In this document: positions 6,231-43,503 of the stretch, piece after piece
Layout of the letters: each line of letters starts with the position of its first letter
How positions within the stretch are numbered: position 1 is the first letter of the stretch
NCBI GenBank assembly: GCA_039679675.1
Contig: JBDKUN010000033.1
Location: forward strand, 64,001 to 128,000
Reading direction: 5' to 3'
Length of the DNA: 64,000 nucleotides
Source of the DNA: Armatimonadota bacterium
GTDB taxonomy: Bacteria; Armatimonadota; UBA5829; DTLH01
Made by a program: the position numbers and the translations under genes
Notes under the pieces: model-generated
The model's database searches: none
What the model was told of the DNA's origin: nothing
What the model saw: only the letters and a program-made list of their open reading frames with translations

Positions 6231-7481
6231 ATGAAAGGCAGGATCACAAAGGTGTGTATTGCAGGTCTGCTGTGCAGTGGACTGATAATGTCCACGTGTG
6301 CGGCTTATGCGGGCGAAAGTAAAAGAAACTACGATTTTGACGGCAAAATCTCGCAGGAAGTGCTTCGAAATTACCTGTCCAGGGCCGTCACGATCAACGG
6401 GCTCAGTTTCAGCCCTCAAAAAGAAGATGACATCCGTATGGTCAAGAACATCGGTGCGAAGTTTCTTGGCCGTGTTGCTTATATATGGGGCAATCCCTGG
6501 GGTGATGAATCAGGCTACTGGCATGAGATGAAAGCCGTCGCGGAGCGGCTGCATAAGGACGACCCGCAGTATATAATTCAAGCCTGTATATTCGAGGCCA
6601 TCCATCCGGGGATAGACAATGTGCCTGTTCCTGACTGGGTATTCAAAGAGTTCGGCCTGAAACCGGAGCATCGGAATTTCAGATATAAAGACACGCTTTT
6701 TGACAACGACAAGATGGCTGGCAAATGGGGAAGCGATGGTTCGGTCCCTGATATAAGCAAACTGGAAACGAAAATGTGGTTCTTCTACCGCGCGAAGATG
6801 TACATTGACTGTGGGTATGAGGGGCTTCACCTGGGGCAGATAGGTATGATCGGCAGAGCTGACCCCGGCTATAAGAACTGGAAAGATGTCATCGACCGGA
6901 TTCGCCGCTATGCCGCTAAGCACGCAAGACGGCATTACATAATCATCGATGCGCATGTAAATGTTCAAAATGACGGGAATGTGCCGGTAGTAGCCGGCAA
7001 AATACTGCTAGATTTCTTCAGTTTCCCGACTCGTCCGGTGGAGGTTCCCGGAGAACCGATGAAAGCTGTATTAAAAGTCGGACATGCCGATACTATTTAT
7101 AAGAGAAGTCCTGGAGGTATTCACCCGAGCGGGTGGAAGTGTGAGCATGTGCCGACTCTGGTGGAGTTCGATCAGTGCCATGCGAGCGGCAGGGAAGGAC
7201 AGCCGAATCTTGGCACGCCTTTCGTCTGGGGATATGAAGAGGCGACATGGTTTGCCCACCAGCCGGAAGAATATCGGAATGAATGGCTCAGATACGCCTG
7301 GAAATGGCTGAAAGAGAACGACCCGAACTGCCATTTCCAAATGCCGGGCAGTATTCCTATGCAAGTTCCGATAGATGGAGACAATTGGTACAGGGCGAAT
7401 ACCAAAAGTGCTGCGAGCCCGCATGGGTTCAGCCAGGAAGAGACCATCAAGGCTATCTGGGCGGCAGATAGCGGTAAATAG
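6231..7481 (+). CDS. Secreted hypothetical protein, possibly a glycoside-hydrolase-like fold
   Basis: GGAG SD before ATG 6231, signal peptide ending AYA, Trp/Tyr-rich long ORF; family not recognised. Confidence 0.65.
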   Translation: MKGRITKVCIAGLLCSGLIMSTCAAYAGESKRNYDFDGKISQEVLRNYLSRAVTINGLSFSPQKEDDIRMVKNIGAKFLGRVAYIWGNPWGDESGYWHEMKAVAERLHKDDPQYIIQACIFEAIHPGIDNVPVPDWVFKEFGLKPEHRNFRYKDTLFDNDKMAGKWGSDGSVPDISKLETKMWFFYRAKMYIDCGYEGLHLGQIGMIGRADPGYKNWKDVIDRIRRYAAKHARRHYIIIDAHVNVQNDGNVPVVAGKILLDFFSFPTRPVEVPGEPMKAVLKVGHADTIYKRSPGGIHPSGWKCEHVPTLVEFDQCHASGREGQPNLGTPFVWGYEEATWFAHQPEEYRNEWLRYAWKWLKENDPNCHFQMPGSIPMQVPIDGDNWYRANTKSAASPHGFSQEETIKAIWAADSGK

Positions 7482-7501
7482 AAAATAGACAGGGGAAAGA
7501 T

Positions 7502-8581
7502 ATGACTCGCGTTTATAACTTCAATGCAGGCCCGGCTGCTCTTCCGCTTCCGGTGCTCAAAAAAGCACAGGCGGAGATGCTGGATGCTTGCAACACCGGG
7601 ATGTCGATTATGGAGATATCCCACAGATCAAGGGAATTCGATGCCGTGATCGAAAGCGCCGAAGCAAATGTCCGCAGGCTTCTGGGCATAACGGATGATT
7701 ACTCGGTCCTGTTCCTTCAGGGCGGCGCGAGCATGCAGTTTGCCATGATCCCGCTGAATTTGCGGAGAGAAGGCCGTGCAGCTGATTATGTAAACACCGG
7801 TGTCTGGGCATCGAAGGCTATAAATGAAGCAAAGATCGGCGGAAAGGTCCACGTCGCCTGGGACGGGCGGGATGAGAACTATATCCGCACTCCAAATGAA
7901 GACGAACTGAATTTCACCCACGGAGCTGAGTATGTTCACATCTGCTCAAACGAGACTGTAGGCGGAATACGCTTTCCAATGTTTCCCCGGACTGAAGCGC
8001 CGCTCATCGCCGATATGTCGAGCGAGATTATGTCGCGCGTAATCGATGTAAACCGGTTCGGGATGATCTATGCAGGCGCTCAGAAGAACCTGGGGCCATC
8101 AGGACTTGCGCTGGTAATCATCAGAAAAGACCTGATAGAACGCAGCCCTGAGACGATCAATATATTCCTGCGCTACAAGACCCATGCTGAGGGGAAAAGC
8201 CTCTATAACACGCCGAATACATGGGCTATTTACATACTGAAACTTGTCACGGACTGGGTGGAGGACCTCGGCGGGCTTCCCGCGATGCAGTCGATAAACG
8301 AAGAGAAGGCCGGGATACTCTACAACACGCTTGATTCCAGCTCTTTCTGGACTGTCCCTGTTTCAAAAGAAAGCCGGTCGATAATGAACATCGTCTGGCG
8401 GCTTCCCAGCACAGAACTCGAAGATATGTTCCTTCCAGAAGCCAAAACAGCCGGGTTTGTGGGGCTGAAAGGCCACCGTTTGGTCGGCGGAATCCGCGCA
8501 AGCATCTACAACGCCGTCTCAAAGGATGCTGTAATAGCGCTCGCAGAGTTCATGAGTGACTTCGAGAAGAGAAGGGGATAG
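7502..8581 (+). CDS. serC: Phosphoserine aminotransferase
   Basis: YNFNAGPAALP, EISHRS, FLQGGAS, YAGAQKNLGP, GHRLVGGIRASIYNA. Confidence 0.97.
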   Translation: MTRVYNFNAGPAALPLPVLKKAQAEMLDACNTGMSIMEISHRSREFDAVIESAEANVRRLLGITDDYSVLFLQGGASMQFAMIPLNLRREGRAADYVNTGVWASKAINEAKIGGKVHVAWDGRDENYIRTPNEDELNFTHGAEYVHICSNETVGGIRFPMFPRTEAPLIADMSSEIMSRVIDVNRFGMIYAGAQKNLGPSGLALVIIRKDLIERSPETINIFLRYKTHAEGKSLYNTPNTWAIYILKLVTDWVEDLGGLPAMQSINEEKAGILYNTLDSSSFWTVPVSKESRSIMNIVWRLPSTELEDMFLPEAKTAGFVGLKGHRLVGGIRASIYNAVSKDAVIALAEFMSDFEKRRG

Positions 8582-32184: not shown

Positions 32185-34107
32185 TTATCTTAAGAGCCTT
32201 CTATCCCCGTCTCTTCTTGTTAAGCAGGTGCTGTCAAAGTATTCCAGAAGCGCAATTGCGTATTTTCGTGAAACCGAGAGAAGATCGCGCAGTTCGGCAG
32301 CTGTAATCCCGCCGTTTGCCTTGATGTACTCGATAACGGACTTTTTCGCTTTCTCAAAGGTGTCTCTATGATATGTGACCTTGTCACTTAAACGCAGTAA
32401 TTGTCCCTGGTCAATAAGGCTCTTCATAACGTTATCGAAGACCTTTGGTGAAAGCCGCAGTTCCTCCATCACATCATCTTCGAGAGGAGTCGAGTAACCA
32501 GCAGCTAAGAAAACCGACTCTATCCTATCTGCCGCCCTCTGTTCGGCATCTGAGAGCTTCGATTGATGGTCCGAGAGTCCAACTTTGTTGTCCCTTTTTA
32601 CCAAAATCTTATTCTCAGCAAGTTTCGAGACAATTGCATCGAAAACCTGCCGGTCGGCAAGCTTCAAGAACCTGGATTGCAGGTCTGCAGCAGGCATCAT
32701 CGTCTTGTAAGCGTCTTTTGAGTAGTAGTCCTTGATAATCTCGATCAGTTTTGCCGTCAGCTCATCGAACCTGTCTTTTTGAAGATACTTCTCTTGAGCG
32801 CCTGAAGCTATCAAGGCGAGCTTTCCAACACTTATAAGCGATTTTATAACTTCGGCTACCTCTGATTCGCTCTCTTCGACGGCAAAAGCAATCTCCGAGG
32901 CAGTCTTTGGCGCGAATCTGGACTTGAAGAAGGCATGATCGACAACATCAGAGATGCAACCTTCGAGCTTCTCCAGTCCTTCGATTGCGGTTTTATCGAA
33001 ACGCTTATGATGCGCGGGCTGTGAGTCGAGTATTGTCCCACCTCCGATGGTCTCCTGCGAAGAGAATGACCGTATGACGAACCTGTCTTTAGGGAGCGCA
33101 ACCGTAGGCGACTCCAGCACAAGCTGCGCATAGCCGGTCTCGCCTGGTATAAGTGTTTCTGCGTCCAGAAGCACTGTGCGGCACATCACCTCGTCTGTCC
33201 CGACGTGCAGCCTGACACGGGTGCGGTTCTTCAGCTCGTCATTGTAGCTCTGAGACACGAAAAGCCGGACATCGAGAAGCGTAGTAGGGGAGAGCGAGCC
33301 GGGAGCGCAGGCGACCTGCCCGCGTCTTAATTGATCCTTCTTCACATCCTGAAGGTTGATAGCTGTGCGCCTGCCGAGATAAGACCTTTCCTTGCTCTCA
33401 TTGTGAATCTGTATTCCGCGGACTCTTGCATTTAGTCCATCGGGCATTATCTCCAGCCTGTCGCCGACATTTACCTCGCCTGATAATACCGTCCCCGCAA
33501 TGACCGCGCCGAAGCCCTGCAACGCAAAAACGCGGTCTACAGGCATCCTGAATATTCCGCTGTCCCGGCGTTTTTTGGTCTTCCCGGCAACAGAAATGAG
33601 GGCAGACCGCACTTCATCGACCCCGGCTCCGGTAATTGCCGAAACAGGGATAATCGGTTGGCTTTCGAGGAATGTCCCGGCGACGAGACTTTCAATATCT
33701 GACTTAACGATGCGTATATGCTCATTGTCTACGAGATCGGCCTTAGTGATTGCAATAATCCCGGTCTCTACTCCGAGGATTCGCAGAATATCAAAGTGCT
33801 CGCGCGTCTGGACATTGATTCCCTCGTCAGCGGCTACTACCAAGAGCGCTGCGTCTATATTGCTTGCGCCTGCAACCATCGTCTTGATGAGCTTTTCATG
33901 TCCGGGGACATCAATGAAGACGATTTGCCGGTCGAGCCCTGGCGTCTCCAAAAAGGCGAAGCCGAGCTCGATTGTGATTCCACGCTTTTTCTCTTCTGTA
34001 AGCGTGTCACAATCAAAGCCGGTGAGCGCTTTAACCAAAGCTGTCTTTCCGTGATCGATGTGCCCGGCAGTCCCAATTATTGTTTGTTCAATCTCAATAA
34101 GTGTCAT
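32185..34107 (-). CDS. selB: Selenocysteine-specific elongation factor
   Basis: GTAGHIDHGKT, GITIELGF, DVPGHE, C-terminal SRKYAIALLEYFD..TRRDGDRR; start moved to ATG 34107. Confidence 0.97.
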   Translation of the reverse strand: MTLIEIEQTIIGTAGHIDHGKTALVKALTGFDCDTLTEEKKRGITIELGFAFLETPGLDRQIVFIDVPGHEKLIKTMVAGASNIDAALLVVAADEGINVQTREHFDILRILGVETGIIAITKADLVDNEHIRIVKSDIESLVAGTFLESQPIIPVSAITGAGVDEVRSALISVAGKTKKRRDSGIFRMPVDRVFALQGFGAVIAGTVLSGEVNVGDRLEIMPDGLNARVRGIQIHNESKERSYLGRRTAINLQDVKKDQLRRGQVACAPGSLSPTTLLDVRLFVSQSYNDELKNRTRVRLHVGTDEVMCRTVLLDAETLIPGETGYAQLVLESPTVALPKDRFVIRSFSSQETIGGGTILDSQPAHHKRFDKTAIEGLEKLEGCISDVVDHAFFKSRFAPKTASEIAFAVEESESEVAEVIKSLISVGKLALIASGAQEKYLQKDRFDELTAKLIEIIKDYYSKDAYKTMMPAADLQSRFLKLADRQVFDAIVSKLAENKILVKRDNKVGLSDHQSKLSDAEQRAADRIESVFLAAGYSTPLEDDVMEELRLSPKVFDNVMKSLIDQGQLLRLSDKVTYHRDTFEKAKKSVIEYIKANGGITAAELRDLLSVSRKYAIALLEYFDSTCLTRRDGDRRLLR

Positions 34108-34454: not shown

Positions 34455-36032
34455 CTAAATCTTATTCATAACCGATTCGTAAAACATCCTGACAGGTGCG
34501 CCGCCGAAAGAGATCGCCATCCACACTGCCTCGTCAATCTCTTCTTCGCCGATCCCCATGCCCCGCGCCTTATTGATGTGAATTTTGATGCATGGCTCGC
34601 ACTTGGATAAAACCGACAGTGAAATTGCCATAAGTTCTTTTGTTCGGAGTGAAACTGCGCCAGGTGCATTGACTGTGCGCATAAAGTCACCGAATATCTC
34701 TTCTGCTGTTGATTGCGTACTCGTTTTTGTCTCAACTGGCGCGGCACAGCAGTCTGCACTCATTGATGAGCAGCAGGCTCCGTCATTTGGTTCTGGCATA
34801 TCAGCACTCTCCTTACGCGTCGGGGTATATGTCCCACTGCTGGTTCTCAAGAGGATTCTACCTTCTGATTTTGAGATGACTTTCCCTATAACTGTCGCAT
34901 GGCTAACGCCCCGTGACCTGAGCTTTTCGACCAATGCGCCGGATTTTGCCTCAGAAATGGCTATCAAAAGCCCTCCAGAGGTCTGCGGGTCGTACAGGAC
35001 GTGGACTATTTCTTCCGGTACATCGCTCGATACGGAAACACGGCTGGAGGCGTATTCGCTGTTTCTCTCGATACCGCCGGAGATGTATCCCTGTGCAACA
35101 TAGTCTAATATTTCATCAAAAACCGGCACTTGATCGGTGTAAACTTCTGCCGTAACGCCGCTCTGCGATACCATCTCGCCGAGGTGTCCCAGAAGGCCGA
35201 ATCCAGTTACATCCGTAGCCGTCGTGACTCCCATCTCGCTAATAACCTCGGCGGCAGCCTTGTTTAGCTCGGTCATGGACTTCGCTGCAGCGGCCAGTGC
35301 AGCGCCGGATGCTTTTCCCATCTGCCCTGCAAAGCTGATGATGCCGACTCCGAGCGGTTTTGTAAGCACCAATAGATCACCAGGCTGCGCTTTATCGTTT
35401 GTAATGATTCTGGACGGATTGACTATCCCCGTGACGGCGTAACCGAACTTGGGGTCTTTGTCGTTGACGCTGTGCCCGCCTATGATTGCAACCCCGGCTT
35501 CCTGCATTTTGTCCATCCCGCCGCGAAGCATCTGGGCCATTATCTCGTGACTCAATGTTTCGATAGGAAAACCGATTACCGAGAGCGCTGTCATCGGCTT
35601 TCCGCCCATCGCATAGACATCACTGAGTGAGTTCGCGGCGGCTATCTGGCCGAAGGTGTACGGATCGTCTACACTTGGCGTGAAAACATCCACTGTCTGA
35701 ACAAGCGCGGTATCTTCGTCAATTTTGTAGACACCGGCATCGTCGCACGTGTTCGTGCCGACAAGAACGCGAGGGTCCGACACCTGCGGGAGCCCGGAAA
35801 GTACCTTTTTTAAGTCATTCTGGTTGATCTTGGAGGCGCAGCCTGCCTTCTCGACTAGCGTTGTGAGATTAACATGCTCAATCGTCTGTTCCGGGCGCTC
35901 TCCGGCGCACGGACATATATTCTTATTTTTGAAAGTGTCGCAAGGGCAACCCTGCTTGGGGTTACAGATGCAGTGCCCCAGCTTTATGGACCGCTGCATG
36001 ACTCGGCGTCTTTTTTCGATGTCTATTTTCAT
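34455..36032 (-). CDS. selD: Selenophosphate synthetase fused to an N-terminal Cys-rich domain and a C-terminal AhpD/CMD domain
   Basis: AGCASK, DDAGVY, QTVDVF, AAANSLSDVYAMGG, GGHS, TDVTGFGLLGH, DPQTSGGLL; N-term CICNPKQGCPC..CPC; C-term KELMAIS..CEPC..H. Confidence 0.95.
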   Translation of the reverse strand: MKIDIEKRRRVMQRSIKLGHCICNPKQGCPCDTFKNKNICPCAGERPEQTIEHVNLTTLVEKAGCASKINQNDLKKVLSGLPQVSDPRVLVGTNTCDDAGVYKIDEDTALVQTVDVFTPSVDDPYTFGQIAAANSLSDVYAMGGKPMTALSVIGFPIETLSHEIMAQMLRGGMDKMQEAGVAIIGGHSVNDKDPKFGYAVTGIVNPSRIITNDKAQPGDLLVLTKPLGVGIISFAGQMGKASGAALAAAAKSMTELNKAAAEVISEMGVTTATDVTGFGLLGHLGEMVSQSGVTAEVYTDQVPVFDEILDYVAQGYISGGIERNSEYASSRVSVSSDVPEEIVHVLYDPQTSGGLLIAISEAKSGALVEKLRSRGVSHATVIGKVISKSEGRILLRTSSGTYTPTRKESADMPEPNDGACCSSMSADCCAAPVETKTSTQSTAEEIFGDFMRTVNAPGAVSLRTKELMAISLSVLSKCEPCIKIHINKARGMGIGEEEIDEAVWMAISFGGAPVRMFYESVMNKI

Positions 36033-36036
36033 ACCA

Positions 36037-37428
36037 CTACTCATTCCTAAAGATAGCTCGAATCGCATCTACCACGTTGCTGTCTTCATTCGGCTGAATT
36101 GTCCTGAAGTCGAACAACACCGACTCCTGATGTATACGCGCAAATATCGGAGTGTCGTTATATCTGAGTTTTCTTGCGAGCGAATCGGCAGACATGTTCT
36201 CAGACTTCACACTGAGGAGTTTTGTTGCTATAGTTTCGGCGGGAACAGACCCGCTCCCGACCTGTGATCTGCCATCTATTACGGATACCTCTGCTGATAT
36301 ATCTCCGAGCTTGTCAGCCACAGCCTGCACACGTCTGTCGAGCTCATCCAGCGGGGTAGAAAGCATTCTGTAAGTCGGATGCCTCTCCTCCAGCCTGTCG
36401 GGACCCAAAAATAGCTTGAGAGTAGCCTCCAGTGCCGCGACTTCCATCTTTCCGACTCTGAGAGCCCTTGCGAGCGGATTTTTCTTGATCTTTTTGATGG
36501 TCTCTTCCATCCCGATGATAATCCCGGACTGCGGCCCGCCGATCAGCTTGTCTCCGCTGAAGCATATCGCATCGCATCCCGCCTTCACACTTGCCTGCAC
36601 CATCGGCTCAGACTCAAGCCCGTATTTGGTAAGGTCAACTAGCGCGCCGCTTCCCAGGTCGTCGATAATTGGGATGCCATGTTCCTTCGCAAGTGGGGCC
36701 ATCTCTTCAACAGTAGGCTCTGCAGTGAACCCGACTATCCTGTAGTTACTCTGGTGGACGTGCAGGATGGCTCCAGTGTTCTCATTTATGGCTGCAGCGT
36801 AGTCTCGAAGGTGAGTTTTGTTCGTAGTTCCGACTTCGCGCATGATCGCGCTGCTCGCTGCCATCACATCAGGCATACGAAACGCACCGCCGATCTCTAC
36901 TAACTGACCACGGGAGACGATTACTTCTTTACCGGCTGCAATCGTGTTCAGAATCAGCATTGTGGCGGCAGCATTGTTGTTCACAATGGTCGCCGCTTCA
37001 GCTCCGGTGAGTTCACAGAGCAGTCTGCTTATGTGGATGTCCCGGCTGCCTCTCTGTCCCGTCTCAATATCAGTCGCAAGGGTGCAGTAGCCTTTTATAA
37101 CATCACTTACCGCCGTAGCGGCAGCTTCAGAGAGCATCGCTCGTCCAAGTCCAGTATGAAGTATGATTCCTGCGGCGTTTATGGCGTGCCGTATAGACGG
37201 CCTGAACTCGGCTTTGATGTATTCCAGAACTATCCCGCCGACGTTCTCAGGTGATAGGTCCATCTCCGGCCCATCTTCACTGATGATTCGGCTGCGTAGC
37301 TTGTCCACGACTTTCCGGCATGAGTCGGCGAGAAATTCACGGTCATGATCATCTAGCGCACTCTTCAGCGCTTCCGTATTCATCAATTCATCTATTGCAG
37401 GCAGTTTCCGCAGGATGTCTTTCTTCAT
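36037..37428 (-). CDS. selA: L-seryl-tRNA(Sec) selenium transferase
   Basis: INAAGIILHTGLGRA, VNNNAAA, SRGQLVEIGGAFR, EVGTTNKTH, DDLGSG, FSGDKLIGGPQ. Confidence 0.97.
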   Translation of the reverse strand: MKKDILRKLPAIDELMNTEALKSALDDHDREFLADSCRKVVDKLRSRIISEDGPEMDLSPENVGGIVLEYIKAEFRPSIRHAINAAGIILHTGLGRAMLSEAAATAVSDVIKGYCTLATDIETGQRGSRDIHISRLLCELTGAEAATIVNNNAAATMLILNTIAAGKEVIVSRGQLVEIGGAFRMPDVMAASSAIMREVGTTNKTHLRDYAAAINENTGAILHVHQSNYRIVGFTAEPTVEEMAPLAKEHGIPIIDDLGSGALVDLTKYGLESEPMVQASVKAGCDAICFSGDKLIGGPQSGIIIGMEETIKKIKKNPLARALRVGKMEVAALEATLKLFLGPDRLEERHPTYRMLSTPLDELDRRVQAVADKLGDISAEVSVIDGRSQVGSGSVPAETIATKLLSVKSENMSADSLARKLRYNDTPIFARIHQESVLFDFRTIQPNEDSNVVDAIRAIFRNE

Positions 37429-37463
37429 TGAATGTCCCTCAGGTTATCTCAAGTCTCAAATAT

Positions 37464-37501
37464 AAAAAACGGGGGCTGACGCATCACGTCAACCCCCGTT
37501 T
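37464..37501 (-). terminator. Intrinsic terminator-like hairpin just upstream of selA
   Basis: Minus strand GGGGGTTGACG-TGATG-CGTCAGCCCCC followed by GTTTTTT. Confidence 0.7.
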
Positions 37502-37539
37502 AATACTGAATTCTGCCCGAAATAGTTGTAATAACTCTA

Positions 37540-38253
37540 CTATCTTGTCCAGATAGTATCTTTTATCGTTACTTTAAATGGGCCGGTTTGAAGCACAGGG
37601 CGAACTGTGACACGTCCTTTTACACTTGATGGTATTCCCCCGGAATACGTGCATGTGCCGCCTCACCCATACTTGAATGACCCACTCCAGACCACCTTGC
37701 CAGTGCTGTTTATTACTTTGAAGCGTGGAGGGTCGGTTTCTCCATCAGATTTTTTGATTACACATTTGTTGTTGCCCTGAGCAGTAACTACGTTGAGGTC
37801 CAGATCTGCTTTGTTGCCGTGCTTGGTGACTTTTATGGACGCGATGAAAGGCGGGCCAAAATTAAGTTTCTGAGCCTTATTCGCCGAGATATCGATCTTG
37901 AGCGTATTACCAGGCGATATAGATGCGGTCCAGCTCACATTGTTCTTATCTTTAGCTATCGCGTCGCAGCCCCAGACATCATGATTACCGACAGGTAAAA
38001 GCAGCACACCATTAGTGGTAGAATATTCGCTGATTTTCCTGCCTGAGTTGCTGAACGTCGTAAGTACAGCATTCCCATGGTAAGGAAGAGTCACTTTTCC
38101 CATCTTACCTTTGTACGTTTTGGGGTCAAAGCGCTCGAATCCAAGAGTGCCGCTCTTGGCGGAATAGCTGGTTATACCGATTGCCACGAGCGCGCATACA
38201 CCGGCCAAAACTGATGCCATGATTTTTCTGGAGTTCTTTTGAATTGTGGTCAT
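37540..38253 (-). CDS. Putative exported selenoprotein (237 aa with Sec; YGUGGTC motif)
   Basis: TGA at 37663-37665 is followed in frame by GGTCTYSGGIPSSVKGRVTVRPVLQTGPFKVTIKDTIWTR then TAG; SECIS-like hairpin; N-terminal signal/TM; GGAGG SD; next to selA. Confidence 0.75.
37632..37648 (-). promoter_or_regulatory. Candidate bacterial SECIS element 1
   Basis: GTATTCC-GGG-GGAATAC stem-loop starting 14 nt after the UGA; G-containing loop. Confidence 0.65.
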
Positions 38254-38327
38254 TCTTCTTTTCTCACCTCCTTTCGCAGTAGCATTAATGAATCTCAGGT
38301 ATTAACCGAAACGCCATAGGCGGGATT

Positions 38328-39113
38328 CTACTTGGAGCCAAGTTTCAAATGGCCGATTGGTGTGCAGTCCAGGCACCTGATGCATTCGGCACTGTTAATA
38401 TCGTCAACCGGGTCAATATCGACCGGGCATTTCTTTGCGCATGCGCCGCAGTGAGTGCACTTGTTCATCGCAAGACGCATCCTGAAAATGGATATTCTAT
38501 TGAAAAGCGAGAATATAGCGCCGAGCGGGCAGAACATCCTGCAGAAGCCGCGAGTGACGAGTATCGTAAATATGAAGAACGCAGCCAGAATAGAGACCCT
38601 CACATAAAACATAAGGTTCATAGGAGATGTCTCGTGCAAAAACAGCCGGCGAGGAAGAGCTGATTCCAATGTCCCAGACGGGCAGAAATTACAGAATGAG
38701 TATGGTGCGCCGGGAAAGAAAAACGGCACGATAAATACCAGCCCGACAAGAACAAGATACTTTGTGTATCTGAGCGGCCGCGGGATCGAGAACTTTTTAA
38801 CAGGGATTTTTGATAATAAATCCTGCAGCAGCCCGAACGGACATATCCATCCGCAGACCAGCCTGCCGAGGAAAGCGCCGACCAGTCCGAGTATCCCTAA
38901 AGTGACGAATGGAATGATCCTGAACGTTGAAAAGTTCACGAGCACGCCGATAGGGCAGGCGAACATAGAGAGCGGACACGAATGACAGTAAAGCGCCGGA
39001 CAGCATATGGTCTTCAGATCAAAATAGGGAAGACCCAGGATCACTAGCGCGATAAACTGGCTCAGATAGCGCAATCTCGTTAATCGTTTAGTTTTTTTGA
39101 TTATGGACCCCAT
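38328..39113 (-). CDS. Membrane 4Fe-4S binding protein (NapH/MauN/YccM-like)
   Basis: CHSCP..ACPIG, CGWICPFG, CNFCPSG, FCRMFCPLG, CTHCGACAKKCP, CIRCLDC with TM helices. Confidence 0.88.
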   Translation of the reverse strand: MGSIIKKTKRLTRLRYLSQFIALVILGLPYFDLKTICCPALYCHSCPLSMFACPIGVLVNFSTFRIIPFVTLGILGLVGAFLGRLVCGWICPFGLLQDLLSKIPVKKFSIPRPLRYTKYLVLVGLVFIVPFFFPGAPYSFCNFCPSGTLESALPRRLFLHETSPMNLMFYVRVSILAAFFIFTILVTRGFCRMFCPLGAIFSLFNRISIFRMRLAMNKCTHCGACAKKCPVDIDPVDDINSAECIRCLDCTPIGHLKLGSK

Positions 39114-39119
39114 AATCAA
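39097..39119 (-). promoter_or_regulatory. Candidate bacterial SECIS element 2, overlapping the next start codon
   Basis: Perfect 10-bp stem TTGATTATGG-GGT-CCATAATCAA starting 15 nt after the UGA. Confidence 0.65.
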
Positions 39120-39128
39120 TCCTCTCTA

Positions 39129-39419
39129 TTACAGTCAAGTAGGGCACGCTTTGCCGCCGGATTTGGACTTTCCGGACTTTTTGTTATCTTTGGATATACT
39201 CGGATTTTCAGCAGGAACTTCCAGCTTTCCGTCTTTGCCGCGGATAACGCTATGGGTCAGGCTGAGTTCCGTTATGGTGAACTCGCTTTTTGAGGATTTT
39301 CCTGCATTGTATTTGACGAAAAAGGTGGAATACAGGATGATCCCCGCGAAGATAACCAACAGGGCAATAAGGAGCAAGGGGCGCGTGCTTCGATTTGTAG
39401 TGATATTCTCTTCGGACAT
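39129..39419 (-). CDS. Putative small membrane-anchored selenoprotein (96 aa, C-terminal CPTU-L)
   Basis: Single TM; reads TGC CCT ACT TGA CTG TAA TAG, a CxxU motif followed by a tandem stop; SECIS-like hairpin downstream. Confidence 0.7.
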
Positions 39420-39567
39420 GCTTCTATCCCCTTTAGCATCTACTGAGTTTCAGGTGTCACCCGAAACTCTCCCGAAAGATTTCGGTAATAGTTGGTATAT
39501 GGTTGGTCTCTAATTGAACAGCCGAAAATTACAGTAGCGACATTACAACAACCGCATCTACATAAAA

Positions 39568-39596
39568 AGTCTATTCCCCAAACCGGCTGTTGTCAA
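39568..39596 (-). promoter_or_regulatory. Sigma70-type promoter of the selenoprotein operon
   Basis: Minus strand TTGACA-17-TAGACT. Confidence 0.65.
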
Positions 39597-39768: not shown

Positions 39769-42700
39769 ATGCGTTGGGTTGCTGCGATAGTGCTTATTCT
39801 GCTTGCTTCTGGTGTAGCTGCTGCGGCTGATGGTATTGATAGAGCTTCTCTAATGGCGGAAGGCCAGAAAGCCGAACTCGCCGGCAAGTGGTTGGATGCC
39901 GCTTTGGCATATTCCGGAATCCTTGTCGAATCTCCTGATGACCCTGAGATCAACCTGAAAGTGGCAGAAATGCTTATAGGGCTAAATTGGCCGGAAGATG
40001 CAGCTTCGTTTCTTGTAAAAGCACTTGATTCACTTAATAGTGACCCCGGAGCATCAAACGAGCTCAAAATGCAGGTCTGTGATGCTCTCATGAACCGTTT
40101 GCCGGCTGCATTGACATCCAGAAAAGATTATAAATGGAACTCCTATAATGCCCCATTCGATACTTTGCCGCAAGCTGAGAAGATAAGAATATATAGATCA
40201 GTACCCCATGACTGGTTGATAAAATCTAAACTACAAGAAGCATATTTACTTCGAAGTGTATCGGAATATGAAAGAGCAGACTCTCTGGCGCATGCGGCGA
40301 TTATTGAAGGCGATTGGCAATGGGGTGCGGCATACCTGTCAAGCTCCGGCCTGGATAACTTTAACCGCGAGTATCTGCTAAACAAGTGGCGAAAAGAAGC
40401 TGAAAGGACCGACAACCCGATGCTTTGGATAGTGCTTTCCGCTGCTTACGCTCGCACAGCGCGAACCGCGGCTTTTTTCGATACATTTCCACGCGTAATA
40501 AAAGCTGTAAAAAAGTTTGATGAGATGCTGGTCGAGTTGCAGGGAATCTGTGAAGAGTTGAAGTGGGATGATGGTGTTAGTAGAGTCAAAAAGCTATTAC
40601 CACCTCCGATCAGTAAGGAAGAGCCAATCAGCCAAAAAGAGCCAATCAGCCAGATAGAACCAAAAGTTGATCCCTGTCCCAAGTTAAGCAAAGCTGTAGC
40701 TGAAAAGAACCTGAAGCAGGCGGAATTAATCGTGTCGAAGCTTCAGGAGGACAGCCCCAGGCTGCTGAAAGAAGCCGGTACCCCGGAGTTACTTGAAGCA
40801 ATGCTTGTGAATGGTTGGGATGACCTTGCGTTAAAGATAGCACCTCACAGCAACGACCCATATGAATTTTCCCCTGTTGTGATACCTATGATCAAGACAT
40901 CGTTATATAATCGGCCCCAATTAGAGAATCGAATCAAGAATATCCTGAATTACCATTTACCTGAGCAAGTCGCGGAGAAAGTGGAGGAAGTAATCCACGC
41001 TCGTTCTTCTCATTATGATGAAGAACCACAGGATGAAAGGGTCTGGTACCTCGAAAATACTGTAAATTTACTGCCTGAACACACTGTTTTAACGGAATTA
41101 TTGATTGATGAATATGAAAATGAAGGTTATTCCCCGAAGGCGTTCGATGTCGCAATCAGAGCAGCAAAGCTTCCCGGAAAGATAGAAAGTCAGGAATCGC
41201 CGCTGATTACCTACGCAAGAAACTACAATCAATCAAAGGAATCAAATGATAAGTTATTCGAAACCAGGAAACAGCTTTCGGTAGACGAACTTCTTGGTAT
41301 AGCAGCCGAATGTAATGAAAATCAGAATCCGGCCGAGGCGATTCGTTGGATCGATGAGGCAATATCGGTTTCGATAAGCCGGTATTACACGAAAAAGGCG
41401 GCATCAGTCGTACCGGTCTATCCGAATATTCCGCAGAATGAATTGAAAGAAATAGCCTCCAGCACAGAGAATGGCAATAACCCGTTCAGCGGCGGCATCT
41501 ATCGGCTCAGGCTTGATTGCCTGGGTAAGCTCGGACGCAAGAATGAAGCACGTCTCGTGCTTAGTGAGGCAAAAAAGCTTTATCCTAACGAGGATTTCGA
41601 GAATTCTCCAAAAGAGCAGAAAGTTTCAGAAAAACCCGAGTCCGTGATCAGTATTCCGTCCTTGTCAGGCAGTGCCTTTCCCGGTATTTTGCCTATATGC
41701 GCTGTACCAGTGCCGGCTGACCCCGCAGATAACCTTCTCTATCTTAAAGAGCAGGTTAGGGCTGCAGGGCTTCCAAATTCAAATGTCAGCATTCATTACG
41801 CGGTTACGGATCTGGCAAACGCGCTTGCAAAATCATCCGCCAATGAGAACATTGATGTTTTGGCAAGGCAACTGCTGCCGCTAATGCCGAGGTATCAAAA
41901 ACTTCTTGTTTTGTCTGTGGATTTATTCAGGAACCGAATGTCTGCTGTAATTCCACTTGCAAGATGTACATTGTATATTGACAAAAGTTCAAAAGATGGT
42001 CAATTTACAGCTACTTGCTATTGCGCCAGTGCGATTGCCAGGACCGGCGATAATGGATTAGCCTGTGCGTACGCGTTGGCAGCCACTTTAATAGAACCCA
42101 ATCTTTCGCCACTTGATAAATTCTGGAACAAGGCTCCTGCAGGGGGCTGGTATAATTCGTTACCCAAGGCAGATTACGATGAGTTGATGGTACTGCTGGC
42201 CGAAGATCTGCCACACGGCTACCCTTATGATTATGTGAAGGGTATTCCCATAATAAAGCTGGGTGATTTGTATAGGCAGTATTTGGATAGAGTATACCGC
42301 TTAACGGGCACGCTCCGTTCTGAACTCAATCAGAATTCTCTGAATCGGTCCTCATTGCGCATTGACCGGGGGCTCGATGAATTGAGCAAAGGTAATAGAG
42401 ATTGGAAACCATTCACAGCAGCGGATGCTCGCGAACTTGCTGTTTGTATGTTTCAGGAAGGGATGAAAGCCCAGGCAATAAGGTTCCTCGATATCGTTAT
42501 TGCAAATATTGATGAAAATGAAAAACCAAAAGTAATAGAGTTATCGCAAAGGATCAGAGAATTAGATGAGCTTGCTGTGATAGTAACTCCTTACACTCTT
42601 TCGCCTGCCGTAACGGAGTTGCTGGACTCTGGAAAACGCAATGATGCATGGAACTTATGCTGTAAATTCTTCGAAGAAAATGAAATTGTGGAATATAGGG

Positions 42701-43503
42701 CAAAAGCTTTATCCGAAATGGTTAGAATCGATCCGCATAAAGCATTCAGGCTCATAAACACATACATTCCTAATATGCGAATAGGTAATAATGGTCTGTA
42801 TTATATCAACGCTGCAGTTTACCAGCTTCTCCGCAGTGATCCAAAATCAGCAGTGAAAGCGCTACCTGTGTTGAAACGATTGGTAGAAATCAGTAAATAT
42901 GGAACCGAAAACTGTGCCCGTAAATATGGAGCCGAAAACTGTGCTCGTCGCAACTACGCATTGGCGTTGATTCTTGCAGGCCAAAATGATAAGGGTATCG
43001 ATATTTTGTTCCATTTGGATGACCCGCTTTATCATGCATTTAGGATTATAGATGATGCCTGCATACCGAAAAAAATACGGCTTGTTGTTTCAAACGGCTT
43101 AAAAGAATATTTGCGCACCGAGAAACCAAGTATAGCTGGTCTATCGGAAGTGCTGGGGGGGTATGGTGGAGCAACCTCGCAGGATGGCGTTGTTCTTATA
43201 ATGGACTACCTCTCGGAATATATAAGAGACAGAGATTGTTTCATTACAGAAGAATTCATCCAGAAGGTTTATAATGTTCAGTTCAGTTTTATTAGTGATA
43301 AGATTGAACCTGAAGTAAAGGATACCGTATATACCTTTTTTAAAACGGTTATTCTGAAAGCAGCAGCCACTCCGGGAGATAAAAGGGAGTTGGGTGCATG
43401 GTTGCTTAACAGATCTGAAGGTCCTATTTGCATGGGCTATGGTACAACGAAACAATTCAAACAATTGTATAATTTCGCCATTAATCTTTATAACGGAGGA
43501 TAA
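39769..43503 (+). CDS. Large secreted alpha-helical/TPR-like hypothetical protein (1244 aa)
   Basis: Signal peptide, GGAGG SD, TPR-like segments, lower GC, short internal tandem duplications. Confidence 0.7.
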   Translation: MRWVAAIVLILLASGVAAAADGIDRASLMAEGQKAELAGKWLDAALAYSGILVESPDDPEINLKVAEMLIGLNWPEDAASFLVKALDSLNSDPGASNELKMQVCDALMNRLPAALTSRKDYKWNSYNAPFDTLPQAEKIRIYRSVPHDWLIKSKLQEAYLLRSVSEYERADSLAHAAIIEGDWQWGAAYLSSSGLDNFNREYLLNKWRKEAERTDNPMLWIVLSAAYARTARTAAFFDTFPRVIKAVKKFDEMLVELQGICEELKWDDGVSRVKKLLPPPISKEEPISQKEPISQIEPKVDPCPKLSKAVAEKNLKQAELIVSKLQEDSPRLLKEAGTPELLEAMLVNGWDDLALKIAPHSNDPYEFSPVVIPMIKTSLYNRPQLENRIKNILNYHLPEQVAEKVEEVIHARSSHYDEEPQDERVWYLENTVNLLPEHTVLTELLIDEYENEGYSPKAFDVAIRAAKLPGKIESQESPLITYARNYNQSKESNDKLFETRKQLSVDELLGIAAECNENQNPAEAIRWIDEAISVSISRYYTKKAASVVPVYPNIPQNELKEIASSTENGNNPFSGGIYRLRLDCLGKLGRKNEARLVLSEAKKLYPNEDFENSPKEQKVSEKPESVISIPSLSGSAFPGILPICAVPVPADPADNLLYLKEQVRAAGLPNSNVSIHYAVTDLANALAKSSANENIDVLARQLLPLMPRYQKLLVLSVDLFRNRMSAVIPLARCTLYIDKSSKDGQFTATCYCASAIARTGDNGLACAYALAATLIEPNLSPLDKFWNKAPAGGWYNSLPKADYDELMVLLAEDLPHGYPYDYVKGIPIIKLGDLYRQYLDRVYRLTGTLRSELNQNSLNRSSLRIDRGLDELSKGNRDWKPFTAADARELAVCMFQEGMKAQAIRFLDIVIANIDENEKPKVIELSQRIRELDELAVIVTPYTLSPAVTELLDSGKRNDAWNLCCKFFEENEIVEYRAKALSEMVRIDPHKAFRLINTYIPNMRIGNNGLYYINAAVYQLLRSDPKSAVKALPVLKRLVEISKYGTENCARKYGAENCARRNYALALILAGQNDKGIDILFHLDDPLYHAFRIIDDACIPKKIRLVVSNGLKEYLRTEKPSIAGLSEVLGGYGGATSQDGVVLIMDYLSEYIRDRDCFITEEFIQKVYNVQFSFISDKIEPEVKDTVYTFFKTVILKAAATPGDKRELGAWLLNRSEGPICMGYGTTKQFKQLYNFAINLYNGG

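Follow-up and report, generated by a model that had tools for sequence, protein, structure and literature searches.

A small membrane protein gene with a probable C-terminal Cys-x-x-Sec motif upstream of a NapH-like iron-sulphur protein in an Armatimonadota genome

We analysed a stretch of 64,000 nucleotides (nt) from an Armatimonadota bacterium (contig JBDKUN010000033.1; hereafter the window), and within it a small gene on the minus strand that very probably encodes a selenoprotein. The minus-strand order is the small gene, a gene for a NapH-like 4Fe-4S (iron-sulphur, Fe-S) membrane protein, a gene for an exported selenoprotein, selA, a selD fusion and selB (Table 1). Gene callers end the small open reading frame (ORF 39419..39135) at a TGA, at position 39135, which gives a product of 94 residues with translation table 11; reading through this codon with selenocysteine (Sec, U) gives 96. 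The 3' end reads GCG TGC CCT ACT TGA CTG TAA TAG (reverse complement of 39050..39480). We consider it very probable that the UGA is decoded as Sec by SelB and Sec-tRNA, guided by the hairpin that lies downstream. The product would then be a 96-residue selenoprotein with a short cytoplasmic N-terminus, one helix, a conserved motif, a Lys-rich tether and the ending A-C-P-T-U-L, and its Sec insertion sequence (SECIS) would be a hairpin placed beyond the true stop and overlapping the start codon of the next gene. [quoted passage not shown] The features it described—a small membrane protein, the C-P-T-U-L end, the tandem TAA TAG, the Lys/Ser/Gly-rich tether, and a hairpin of 10 base pairs (bp) with a GGU loop 15 nt past the UGA—are correct in every detail, to which we add the minus strand, left unstated there.

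The other way to read the codon is as a plain stop. The protein would then end A-C-P-T-COOH, with a single functional cysteine, and the hairpin would hide the start of the Fe-S gene as a coupling or control element. TGA closes 454 of the 1524 stop-to-stop frames of at least 300 codons in the window's genome (30%), and on this ground we rejected an alternative genetic code in which TGA would be sense throughout. One sense codon and then a stop follow 26 of these 454 TGA codons (5.7%), and one or two sense codons and then a stop follow 52 (11.4%). Of the 5353 TGA codons that close frames of at least 80 codons, 46 (0.86%) have behind them a hairpin of 8 bp or more that carries a G in its loop and starts 11-20 nt later. 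What the single sequence offers is only partly more than chance, and because it proves little, the case rests on conservation across relatives.

Relatives were collected through the Fe-S protein. Searching a sample of 401 genomes of the phylum gave 58 matches in 56 genomes, of which we took 57 loci and left out one match at a contig start. At 16 of these loci the upstream transmembrane protein ends [A/P]-C-P-T-TGA-[L/I/G](W)-stop, and the Fe-S protein is at least 47% identical to that of the window; these have the Sec form. At 38, the upstream gene encodes a membrane protein of 45-60 residues ending C-x-x-C-[IV]-G-L-x(1-6)-stop (the CxxC form), and at the remaining 3, two of them cut by contig ends, no upstream small gene was found. 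A scan across phyla with one genome per species provided 80 loci, all re-scanned by one rule, which assigned the Sec form to 10 and the CxxC form to 58 and left 12 with neither. The 12 include one locus with just 40 nt of upstream sequence and one with a doubtful C-K-E-U that was not counted. One of the 10 Sec-form loci is a contig already counted, so there are 25 distinct Sec-form loci in total. The cross-phylum ones come from Planctomycetota, Verrucomicrobia, Anaerolineales, a delta-proteobacterium and unclassified bacteria.

All 25 distinct loci read C-[P/S]-[T/S]-TGA, so that the UGA is conserved at every one of them. The earlier note had called for such a tabulation of what follows CPT upstream of the Fe-S homologues; CPT-TAA and CPT-TAG were searched for and neither occurs among the 25. 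A plain stop codon would hardly be expected to be so uniform across several phyla, when the 96 analogous CxxC-form genes end in TGA in 44 cases, TAG in 28 and TAA in 24. A plain stop also sits poorly with the second in-frame stop, which follows one or two sense codons past the UGA at 25 of 25 loci and is reached through varied residues (L, I, G, IW, VH, VK, GS, PS, TE).

The hairpin tells a similar story. At the window's locus it is present in both the minimum-energy and the centroid structures (RNAfold) and begins after a gap of 15 nt (39134..39120) behind the TGA; its 5' arm encloses the ATG of the next gene (39113..39111), and a Shine-Dalgarno-like AGAGGA (39125..39120) lies just upstream. 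All 25 Sec-form loci have a hairpin of 6-10 bp and a G-bearing loop of 3-5 nt, placed 11-20 nt past the UGA, and its arms covary; the core in relatives is 8 bp. Conservation of the hairpin was among the checks suggested by the earlier note. We assessed this on an alignment of 25 rows (A2), in which three rows with hairpins of different sequence could not be placed by MAFFT and were left as aligned. Paired cells make up 95% of this alignment, against 27-49% when the partner column is slid by 1-3 columns. Changes on both sides are seen in 5 of the 8 pairs; they involve 21 cells, compared with 7.7 +/- 2.2 after shuffling, and none of 500 shuffles reaches 21. At four loci (L077, L121, L134 and L147) the Fe-S start lies about 15, 240, 55 and 165 nt beyond the hairpin, respectively, and the hairpin is still 11-18 nt from the UGA. 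The distance to the UGA is thus what is kept, which indicates that the hairpin belongs to the UGA and is hard to reconcile with an element that only hides the next start. Where the two overlap, the N-terminus of the Fe-S protein is shaped by the hairpin and reads MGSII, MGSMA, MVAMT, MVSMV or MEVMA depending on the locus, so the constraint acts on the RNA. No such shared hairpin was found in the 14 CxxC-form loci that we folded.

A clear selenoprotein in the same operon provides a standard for the geometry. The gene of the exported protein has Y-G-TGA-G-G-[T/S/A]-C-x-Y-S-G and about 40 conserved codons past the TGA in 10 of 10 copies, and this conservation is what makes it a clear selenoprotein. 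Its own hairpin has a stem of 6-7 bp and a G-rich loop and lies 14 nt past the TGA in the 9 of 9 copies examined; one copy escaped the search pattern and was left out of this survey. The small gene's hairpin shares this geometry, which speaks against a plain stop.

The Sec form is also confined to genomes with Sec machinery, which again speaks against a plain stop. The window's genome has selA, selB and selD, and a tRNA-Sec elsewhere in the genome (68 bits; tRNA-Sec was sought in this genome only). In the phylum, all 16 Sec-form genomes have a selB match, compared with 218 of the 401 genomes of the sample. Seven of the 9 distant Sec-form genomes have a selB that passes the cut-off; in another, a piece of selB adjoins selA where the contig ends, and the last (G409) has selA only. 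A CPT-TGA in a genome lacking the machinery, the case that the earlier note had singled out as damaging to its proposal, was not encountered among them: the 16 have selB and the 9 have selB or selA.

Table 1. Features of the locus, in positions of the window.
Feature	Position	Strand	Basis or remark
Small protein gene, with UGA read as Sec	39129..39419	-	96 codons + TAA; ATG at 39419
TGA, putative Sec codon	39137..39135	-
CTG, last sense codon	39134..39132	-
TAA stop	39131..39129	-
TAG, second stop	39128..39126	-
A-C-P-T-U-L, putative CxxU motif	39132..39149	-	sequence; C-[PS]-[TS]-TGA in 25/25 loci
Predicted single membrane-spanning segment, residues ~14-35	39315..39380	-	sequence; R10 and R13 before it
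Motif E-x-x-[IV]-T-x-L-S-L-T-H-x-[VI]-x-R-x-x-D-G-x-L, residues 46-66	39222..39284	-	alignment A3
Lys/Ser/Gly-rich tether, residues 67-90	39150..39221	-	sequence and relatives
SECIS-like hairpin, perfect 10 bp	39097..39119	-	5' arm 39119..39110; GGT (GGU) loop 39109..39107; 3' arm 39106..39097
NapH-like 4Fe-4S membrane protein (Fer4_5)	38328..39113	-	conserved neighbour, presumed partner
Membrane-anchored exported selenoprotein, Y-G-U-G-G-T-C	37540..38253	-	UGA 37665..37663; own hairpin 37648..37632
selA	36037..37428	-	TIGR00474, 563.5 bits vs cut-off 267.9
selD (Cys type) with C-terminal AhpD/CMD-like domain	34455..36068	-	profile matches
selB, cluster-linked lineage	32188..34080	-	370 bits vs cut-off 242; tree
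Promoter-like site TTGACA, 17 nt, TAGACT	39568..39596	-	~150 nt upstream of small ORF; 10/12 consensus matches; a consensus match only, not functional evidence

Several observations weigh against Sec, and some of them also favour a plain stop. Only one or two codons lie behind the UGA, with no long conserved frame there. TGA is the commonest stop in the GC-rich members of the phylum, closing 25 of the 38 CxxC-form genes found there. The next gene's start codon, an ATG inside the hairpin, is overlapped at 21 of 25 loci, and this arrangement could be translation control alone. When folded by itself, the 81-nt segment is not significantly stable (z = -1.1; an equal or better fold arises in 27 of 200 shuffles). 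No SECIS family from Rfam matches, whether at gathering scores over the whole window or at E<=10 in 37400..39500, a blank that says little because Rfam also misses the hairpin of the clear neighbouring selenoprotein. Genome G409 has no selB match at E<=1e-40 and has its selA in two pieces; the other genomes gave further matches to the selB model, and the completeness of G409 is not given. The loci are related by descent, so that their counts overstate independence. Finally, the redox relay and the outward topology proposed below are read from sequence.

A further point against Sec is the missing Cys form. We built a profile from 24 members (alignment A3; locus G033, with a frame interrupted upstream, was left out), which matches 421 cluster representatives at 50% identity with E<=0.001 and 77 with E<=1e-10. 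We inspected 150 database relatives, and all 150 end exactly two residues past the conserved Cys, with the C-terminal triplets CPT (141), CPS (4), CST (2), CSS, CYS and CKT (1 each). None of these 150 best relatives reads CPTC or extends past C-x-x, as a plain stop would have it, and without a Cys homologue the classical Sec/Cys alignment test fails within the family. A Cys at that spacing is supplied by a positional analogue alone, the CD1871A-like CxxC protein. The common end point therefore cuts both ways: it shows what looks like a large family truncated at one fixed point, yet the Sec/Cys test fails. Against a plain stop, the analogous partners always carry a second redox residue at the exact spacing, as CxxC. 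On balance, the uniform TGA, the second stop, the covarying hairpin anchored to the UGA, the restriction to Sec-decoding genomes and the CxxC spacing of the analogues argue for Sec.

The rest of the small protein suggests how such a residue would be used. E46 and G64 are invariant in the 24 sequences of alignment A3. The tether varies from 5 to ~110 residues in relatives, in which Lys-Pro repeats are frequent. An R or K is nearly always the residue preceding the hydrophobic stretch in the 24 aligned members; residues rich in K/R lie ahead of the helix in 24 of 24, and the stretch after the helix is acidic or Pro-rich in the distant ones. By the positive-inside rule for membrane protein topology, this charge pattern points to a protein with its N-terminus inside and its C-terminal tail facing the outer side.

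The Fe-S protein is the presumed partner. Its gene is immediately preceded by a small gene of the CxxC or CxxU kind at 54 of the 57 loci of the phylum and at 68 of the 80 loci across phyla. The protein has a strongly basic N-terminus, four predicted helices, two CX3CP motifs and a C-terminal two-cluster ferredoxin domain with seven cysteines; six cysteines occupy two predicted outer loops (C37, C43, C46, C53, C141 and C144). Over the 80 loci, C43, C46, C53 and C144 are retained in 79-80, C37 in 76 and C141 in 70, and all 17 conserved cysteines are kept whichever small form precedes the gene. Among solved structures, related ones match it at the ferredoxin motif only. Prediction of a complex between the small protein and the Fe-S protein, with our own alignments supplied, returned no interface. 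The median interaction prediction score from aligned errors (ipSAE) was 0.39 (runs 0.48, 0.39, 0.35), and none of 3 controls exceeded 0.00; at least 72% of contacts are common to the runs, and the predicted local distance difference test score (pLDDT) of the partner is at least 61. The ipSAE mark is reached by 116 of 157 solved complexes and by 2 of 215 mismatched pairs; at ipSAE <=0.60, only 18 of the 157 solved complexes reach it, together with both passing mismatches. We conclude that the prediction weakly supports a complex.

A periplasmic CxxU redox relay served by the NapH-like protein is plausible, if somewhat short of probable. The tail would face the periplasm, where Cys-x-x-Sec would cycle between a selenenylsulfide and the thiol/selenol pair. 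Re-reduction would fall to the adjacent membrane protein, with electrons passing from its cytoplasmic 4Fe-4S domain to the CX3CP cysteines in the helices, then to the six outer-loop cysteines and finally to the CxxU (or CxxC). Once reduced, the arm would pass its electrons to a substrate or partner on the outer side, which here may be the exported Y-G-U-G-G-T-C selenoprotein. The small protein would be the selenium form of the CD1871A-like CxxC partner that precedes this Fe-S family in many anaerobes. The earlier note had pictured a selenol shuttle in which a swinging arm would link the Fe-S protein with the exported selenoprotein, which remains conjecture. By its charges the tail would lie on the outer side, as the exported protein does. 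The exported selenoprotein adjoins the pair at 9 of 16 loci, and a profile of 9 copies did not find it in 4 of 5 further genomes bearing the pair; it is thus not a general acceptor, though it can be a local partner. The fifth genome gave a weak match (36.5 bits, G026:C121:56490-57122), with one TGA in an 848-residue open frame just downstream of the cluster selB. The exported protein is presumably the first cryptic selenoprotein implied by the earlier note. It has no NCBIfam or Pfam family, and its model (pLDDT 80) has an N-terminal helix and two beta-sandwich domains. A specific fold identity was sought and rejected: Foldseek gave only generic tandem beta-sandwich matches (E = 3e-5, TM-score 0.23-0.30).

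Often selA, selD and a SelB lineage of its own accompany the pair, and together they make up a self-contained selenocysteine gene island. In the phylum, selA follows the pair at 12 of 16 loci and selA-selD-selB at 9, whereas four genomes (G043, G047, G049 and G188) have no sel genes within the 9-16 kb fetched around the pair. The neighbours of the pair in three of these (G043, G049 and G188) have no common theme. The island's SelD has G-C-A-S-K, a Cys-rich N-terminal extension of ~60 residues and an AhpD/CMD-like domain with C-E-P-C; the selD of relatives align over residues 15-536, so that the fusion seems conserved in the cluster. We built a SelB tree from 28 chosen sequences, 10 of them cluster-linked and 18 others. 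The cluster-linked SelB (the window's copy and those of loci L093-L107 and L188-L205) group in a single clade (support 100/100) on a long branch of 1.24, which the copies of G004 and G188, from clusters broken by contig ends, also join. The order's housekeeping SelB fall outside this clade, among them the second copies of genomes with two; both kinds occur together in four genomes (G015, G021, G026 and G031), and the window's genome has only the cluster type. The small gene does not require the cluster SelB, because G043, G047 and G049 have the pair with housekeeping SelB only. No bacterial selenoprotein family is more widespread than formate dehydrogenase alpha. The machinery in the window's genome (98% complete) does not seem to serve it, for TIGR01553 has no match there at E<=1e-10.

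If Sec is inserted, C-x-x-U could instead supply ligands to a metal or Fe-S centre, or carry a chalcogen (sulfane or selenium) covalently, in a site completed by the outer-loop C-x-x-C-P cysteines of the Fe-S protein. Sec is a metal ligand in NiFeSe hydrogenase and in formate dehydrogenase. The retention of the six outer-loop cysteines at nearly all 80 loci would suit such a site, and the short CD1871A-like CxxC, just ~20 residues from the membrane, fits a fixed site better than an arm. We nevertheless consider it unlikely: the tether of the Sec form, with its wide range of lengths and often Lys-Pro rich, fits a mobile arm better, CxxC and CxxU have the typical spacing of a redox pair, and the complex prediction gave no interface.

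We consider a role in selenium acquisition very unlikely. In such a device, selenite or elemental selenium would be trapped by the outward Sec/Cys arm and reduced by the Fe-S protein to selenide for the cluster SelD, and the exported selenoprotein would take part. The idea draws on the position of the pair directly upstream of selA or of selA-selD-selB at most loci, on the extra AhpD-like CxxC domain of SelD, and on the in vivo selenium donor for SelD, called unresolved in a 2026 review (PMC13188914). This linkage is equally explained by an island that makes its own selenoproteins, and the four Sec-form loci with no sel genes nearby do not show it. All five genomes of family f20, which carry the CxxC form of the pair, have no selB match, and the pair's basic job is thus not selenium-specific. 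An uptake system that itself needs selenium would also be awkward. Least likely of all is the plain stop, given the uniform codon, the second stop, the hairpin that follows the UGA and the company of Sec machinery described above.

A bolder version of the Sec reading, which we regard as unlikely, would make C-P-T-U an obligate-Sec family without a Cys form, in which the protein would be a 'fishing rod' spanning the periplasm with a selenol at its tip. Its SECIS would do double duty and gate translation of the Fe-S partner, and in the island also of the second selenoprotein and selA-selD-selB, through occupancy by SelB/Sec-tRNA or through read-through. If true, the selenocysteine island, with a SelB lineage of its own, would sense selenium and regulate itself.

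Among known systems, CD1871A (NF040920) is close in arrangement, as the earlier note had suggested: small CxxC proteins of this kind precede this class of Fe-S protein at 96 loci, and NF040920 matches three examples with E-values of 2.5e-6 to 1.2e-3, scores that fall short of its cut-off. Like them, the window's protein is small, has one N-terminal helix and bears a hydrophobic residue right behind its C-terminal C-x-x-[C/U], and its gene is directly upstream of the homologous Fer4_5 membrane protein. It differs by an extra conserved motif, a long and variable tether, only one or two residues past the motif, and C-P-T-U in place of C-[LMT]-x-C-[IV]-G-[IL]-G. The read-through product has no match to NF040920 (32-bit cut-off) at E<=10, and none of the 24 members has one at E<=1. 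A literature search found no paper on CD1871A.

A Sec within the last three residues, in genes that gene callers truncate, is shared with SaoC (NF040734), KCU-star (NF033934) and UXX-star (NF041114, NF041211), and places the SECIS behind the true stop in those families as in this one. SaoC genes end UGA-UAG, followed past the stop by a 7-bp stem with a GGU loop, according to a preprint by Haft and Gwadz (10.1101/2022.07.06.499078), and thus set a precedent for this arrangement. The window's family differs in having a membrane anchor, a tether and CxxU instead of CU, and in the lack of Cys forms among its 150 best relatives, whereas SaoC has many such forms; NF040734, NF033934, NF041114 and NF041211 do not match its sequences. 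The partner resembles NapH/MauN/NosR (TIGR02163) in its Fer4_5 domains, two CX3CP motifs, four predicted helices and two-cluster ferredoxin domain. With 57.1 bits against a cut-off of 213 it is a relative and not a member, and it has six extra outer-loop cysteines and no nap, mau or nos genes nearby.

Two further comparisons concern the arm. Mammalian thioredoxin reductase ferries electrons from a buried centre to an external substrate with a C-terminal Gly-Cys-Sec-Gly arm, and thus also has a penultimate Cys/Sec redox pair on a flexible C-terminal tail; it is unrelated and soluble, with adjacent Cys-Sec instead of CxxU and a eukaryotic SECIS. TonB-type proteins have a Lys-Pro/Glu-Pro periplasmic spacer. 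An N-terminal anchor followed by an extended Pro/Lys-rich spacer that could span the periplasm is common to both, but the family has no TonB C-terminal domain and the spacer of the window's copy is short; one member's match to TonB is at chance level (E 0.42).

These comparisons lead us to class the gene as a new family within a known class, that of bacterial selenoproteins with Sec at the C-terminal end and the SECIS behind the stop. The small protein has no Pfam or NCBIfam family, and NCBIfam release 20 has no model for it, for 23 relatives or for the exported protein. A general homologue search with the small protein gave 3 close matches only, and the sole named database copy is a 'hypothetical protein'. 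The table-11 ORF has no usable feature match in the ESM Atlas, where structure matches came from a poor model (pLDDT 0.49). No such family appears in Table 1 of a 2026 review (>110 families; PMC13188914), in the part of that table consulted, and none of the families of Haft and Tolstoy 2025, as given by their NCBIfam numbers in the same part, was matched. We found no paper on the family in the literature on new selenoprotein families, on CxxU or Planctomycetes selenoproteins, or on sel clusters with membrane proteins.

With at least 421 clusters, the family would, if true, enlarge the bacterial selenoproteome by a sizeable number. It would supply a SECIS wholly outside the reading frame and inside the start region of the next gene, which SECIS-based predictors may handle poorly. 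It would also offer a first functional handle on the widespread and unstudied pair of CD1871A-like and 4Fe-4S membrane proteins: if Sec can replace the second cysteine, the chemistry there is more likely to involve redox or a chalcogen. The linkage to selA, selD and a separate SelB clade suggests that the use of selenocysteine may be packaged with its client proteins as a portable module.

Some smaller observations complete the description. In the gap that separates selA from the exported selenoprotein gene, a G+C-rich stem with a T run behind it (~37498..37463, minus strand) resembles an intrinsic terminator, and the first three genes may therefore form their own unit. At locus L098 (G049, 8566..6599, minus strand) the pair is followed by an unassigned 227-residue ORF, an HGD-D family protein and a BcrAD/BadFG-type ATPase; proteins of the last two types are components of ATP-driven systems for low-potential electron activation. 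Elsewhere in the window's genome (G000, contigs C10, C50, C56 and C59), a repeated palindrome, ATGCTGAR, 5 nt, YTCAGCAT, lies 13-18 nt past several stop codons. We considered whether hairpins recurring after other TGA stops mark further selenoprotein genes and rejected this, the frames behind them being closed; for the same reason the palindrome looks like a repetitive extragenic palindrome and not like a SECIS. Upstream of the small gene, an ORF of 1244 residues (39769..43503, plus strand) is transcribed divergently from it.

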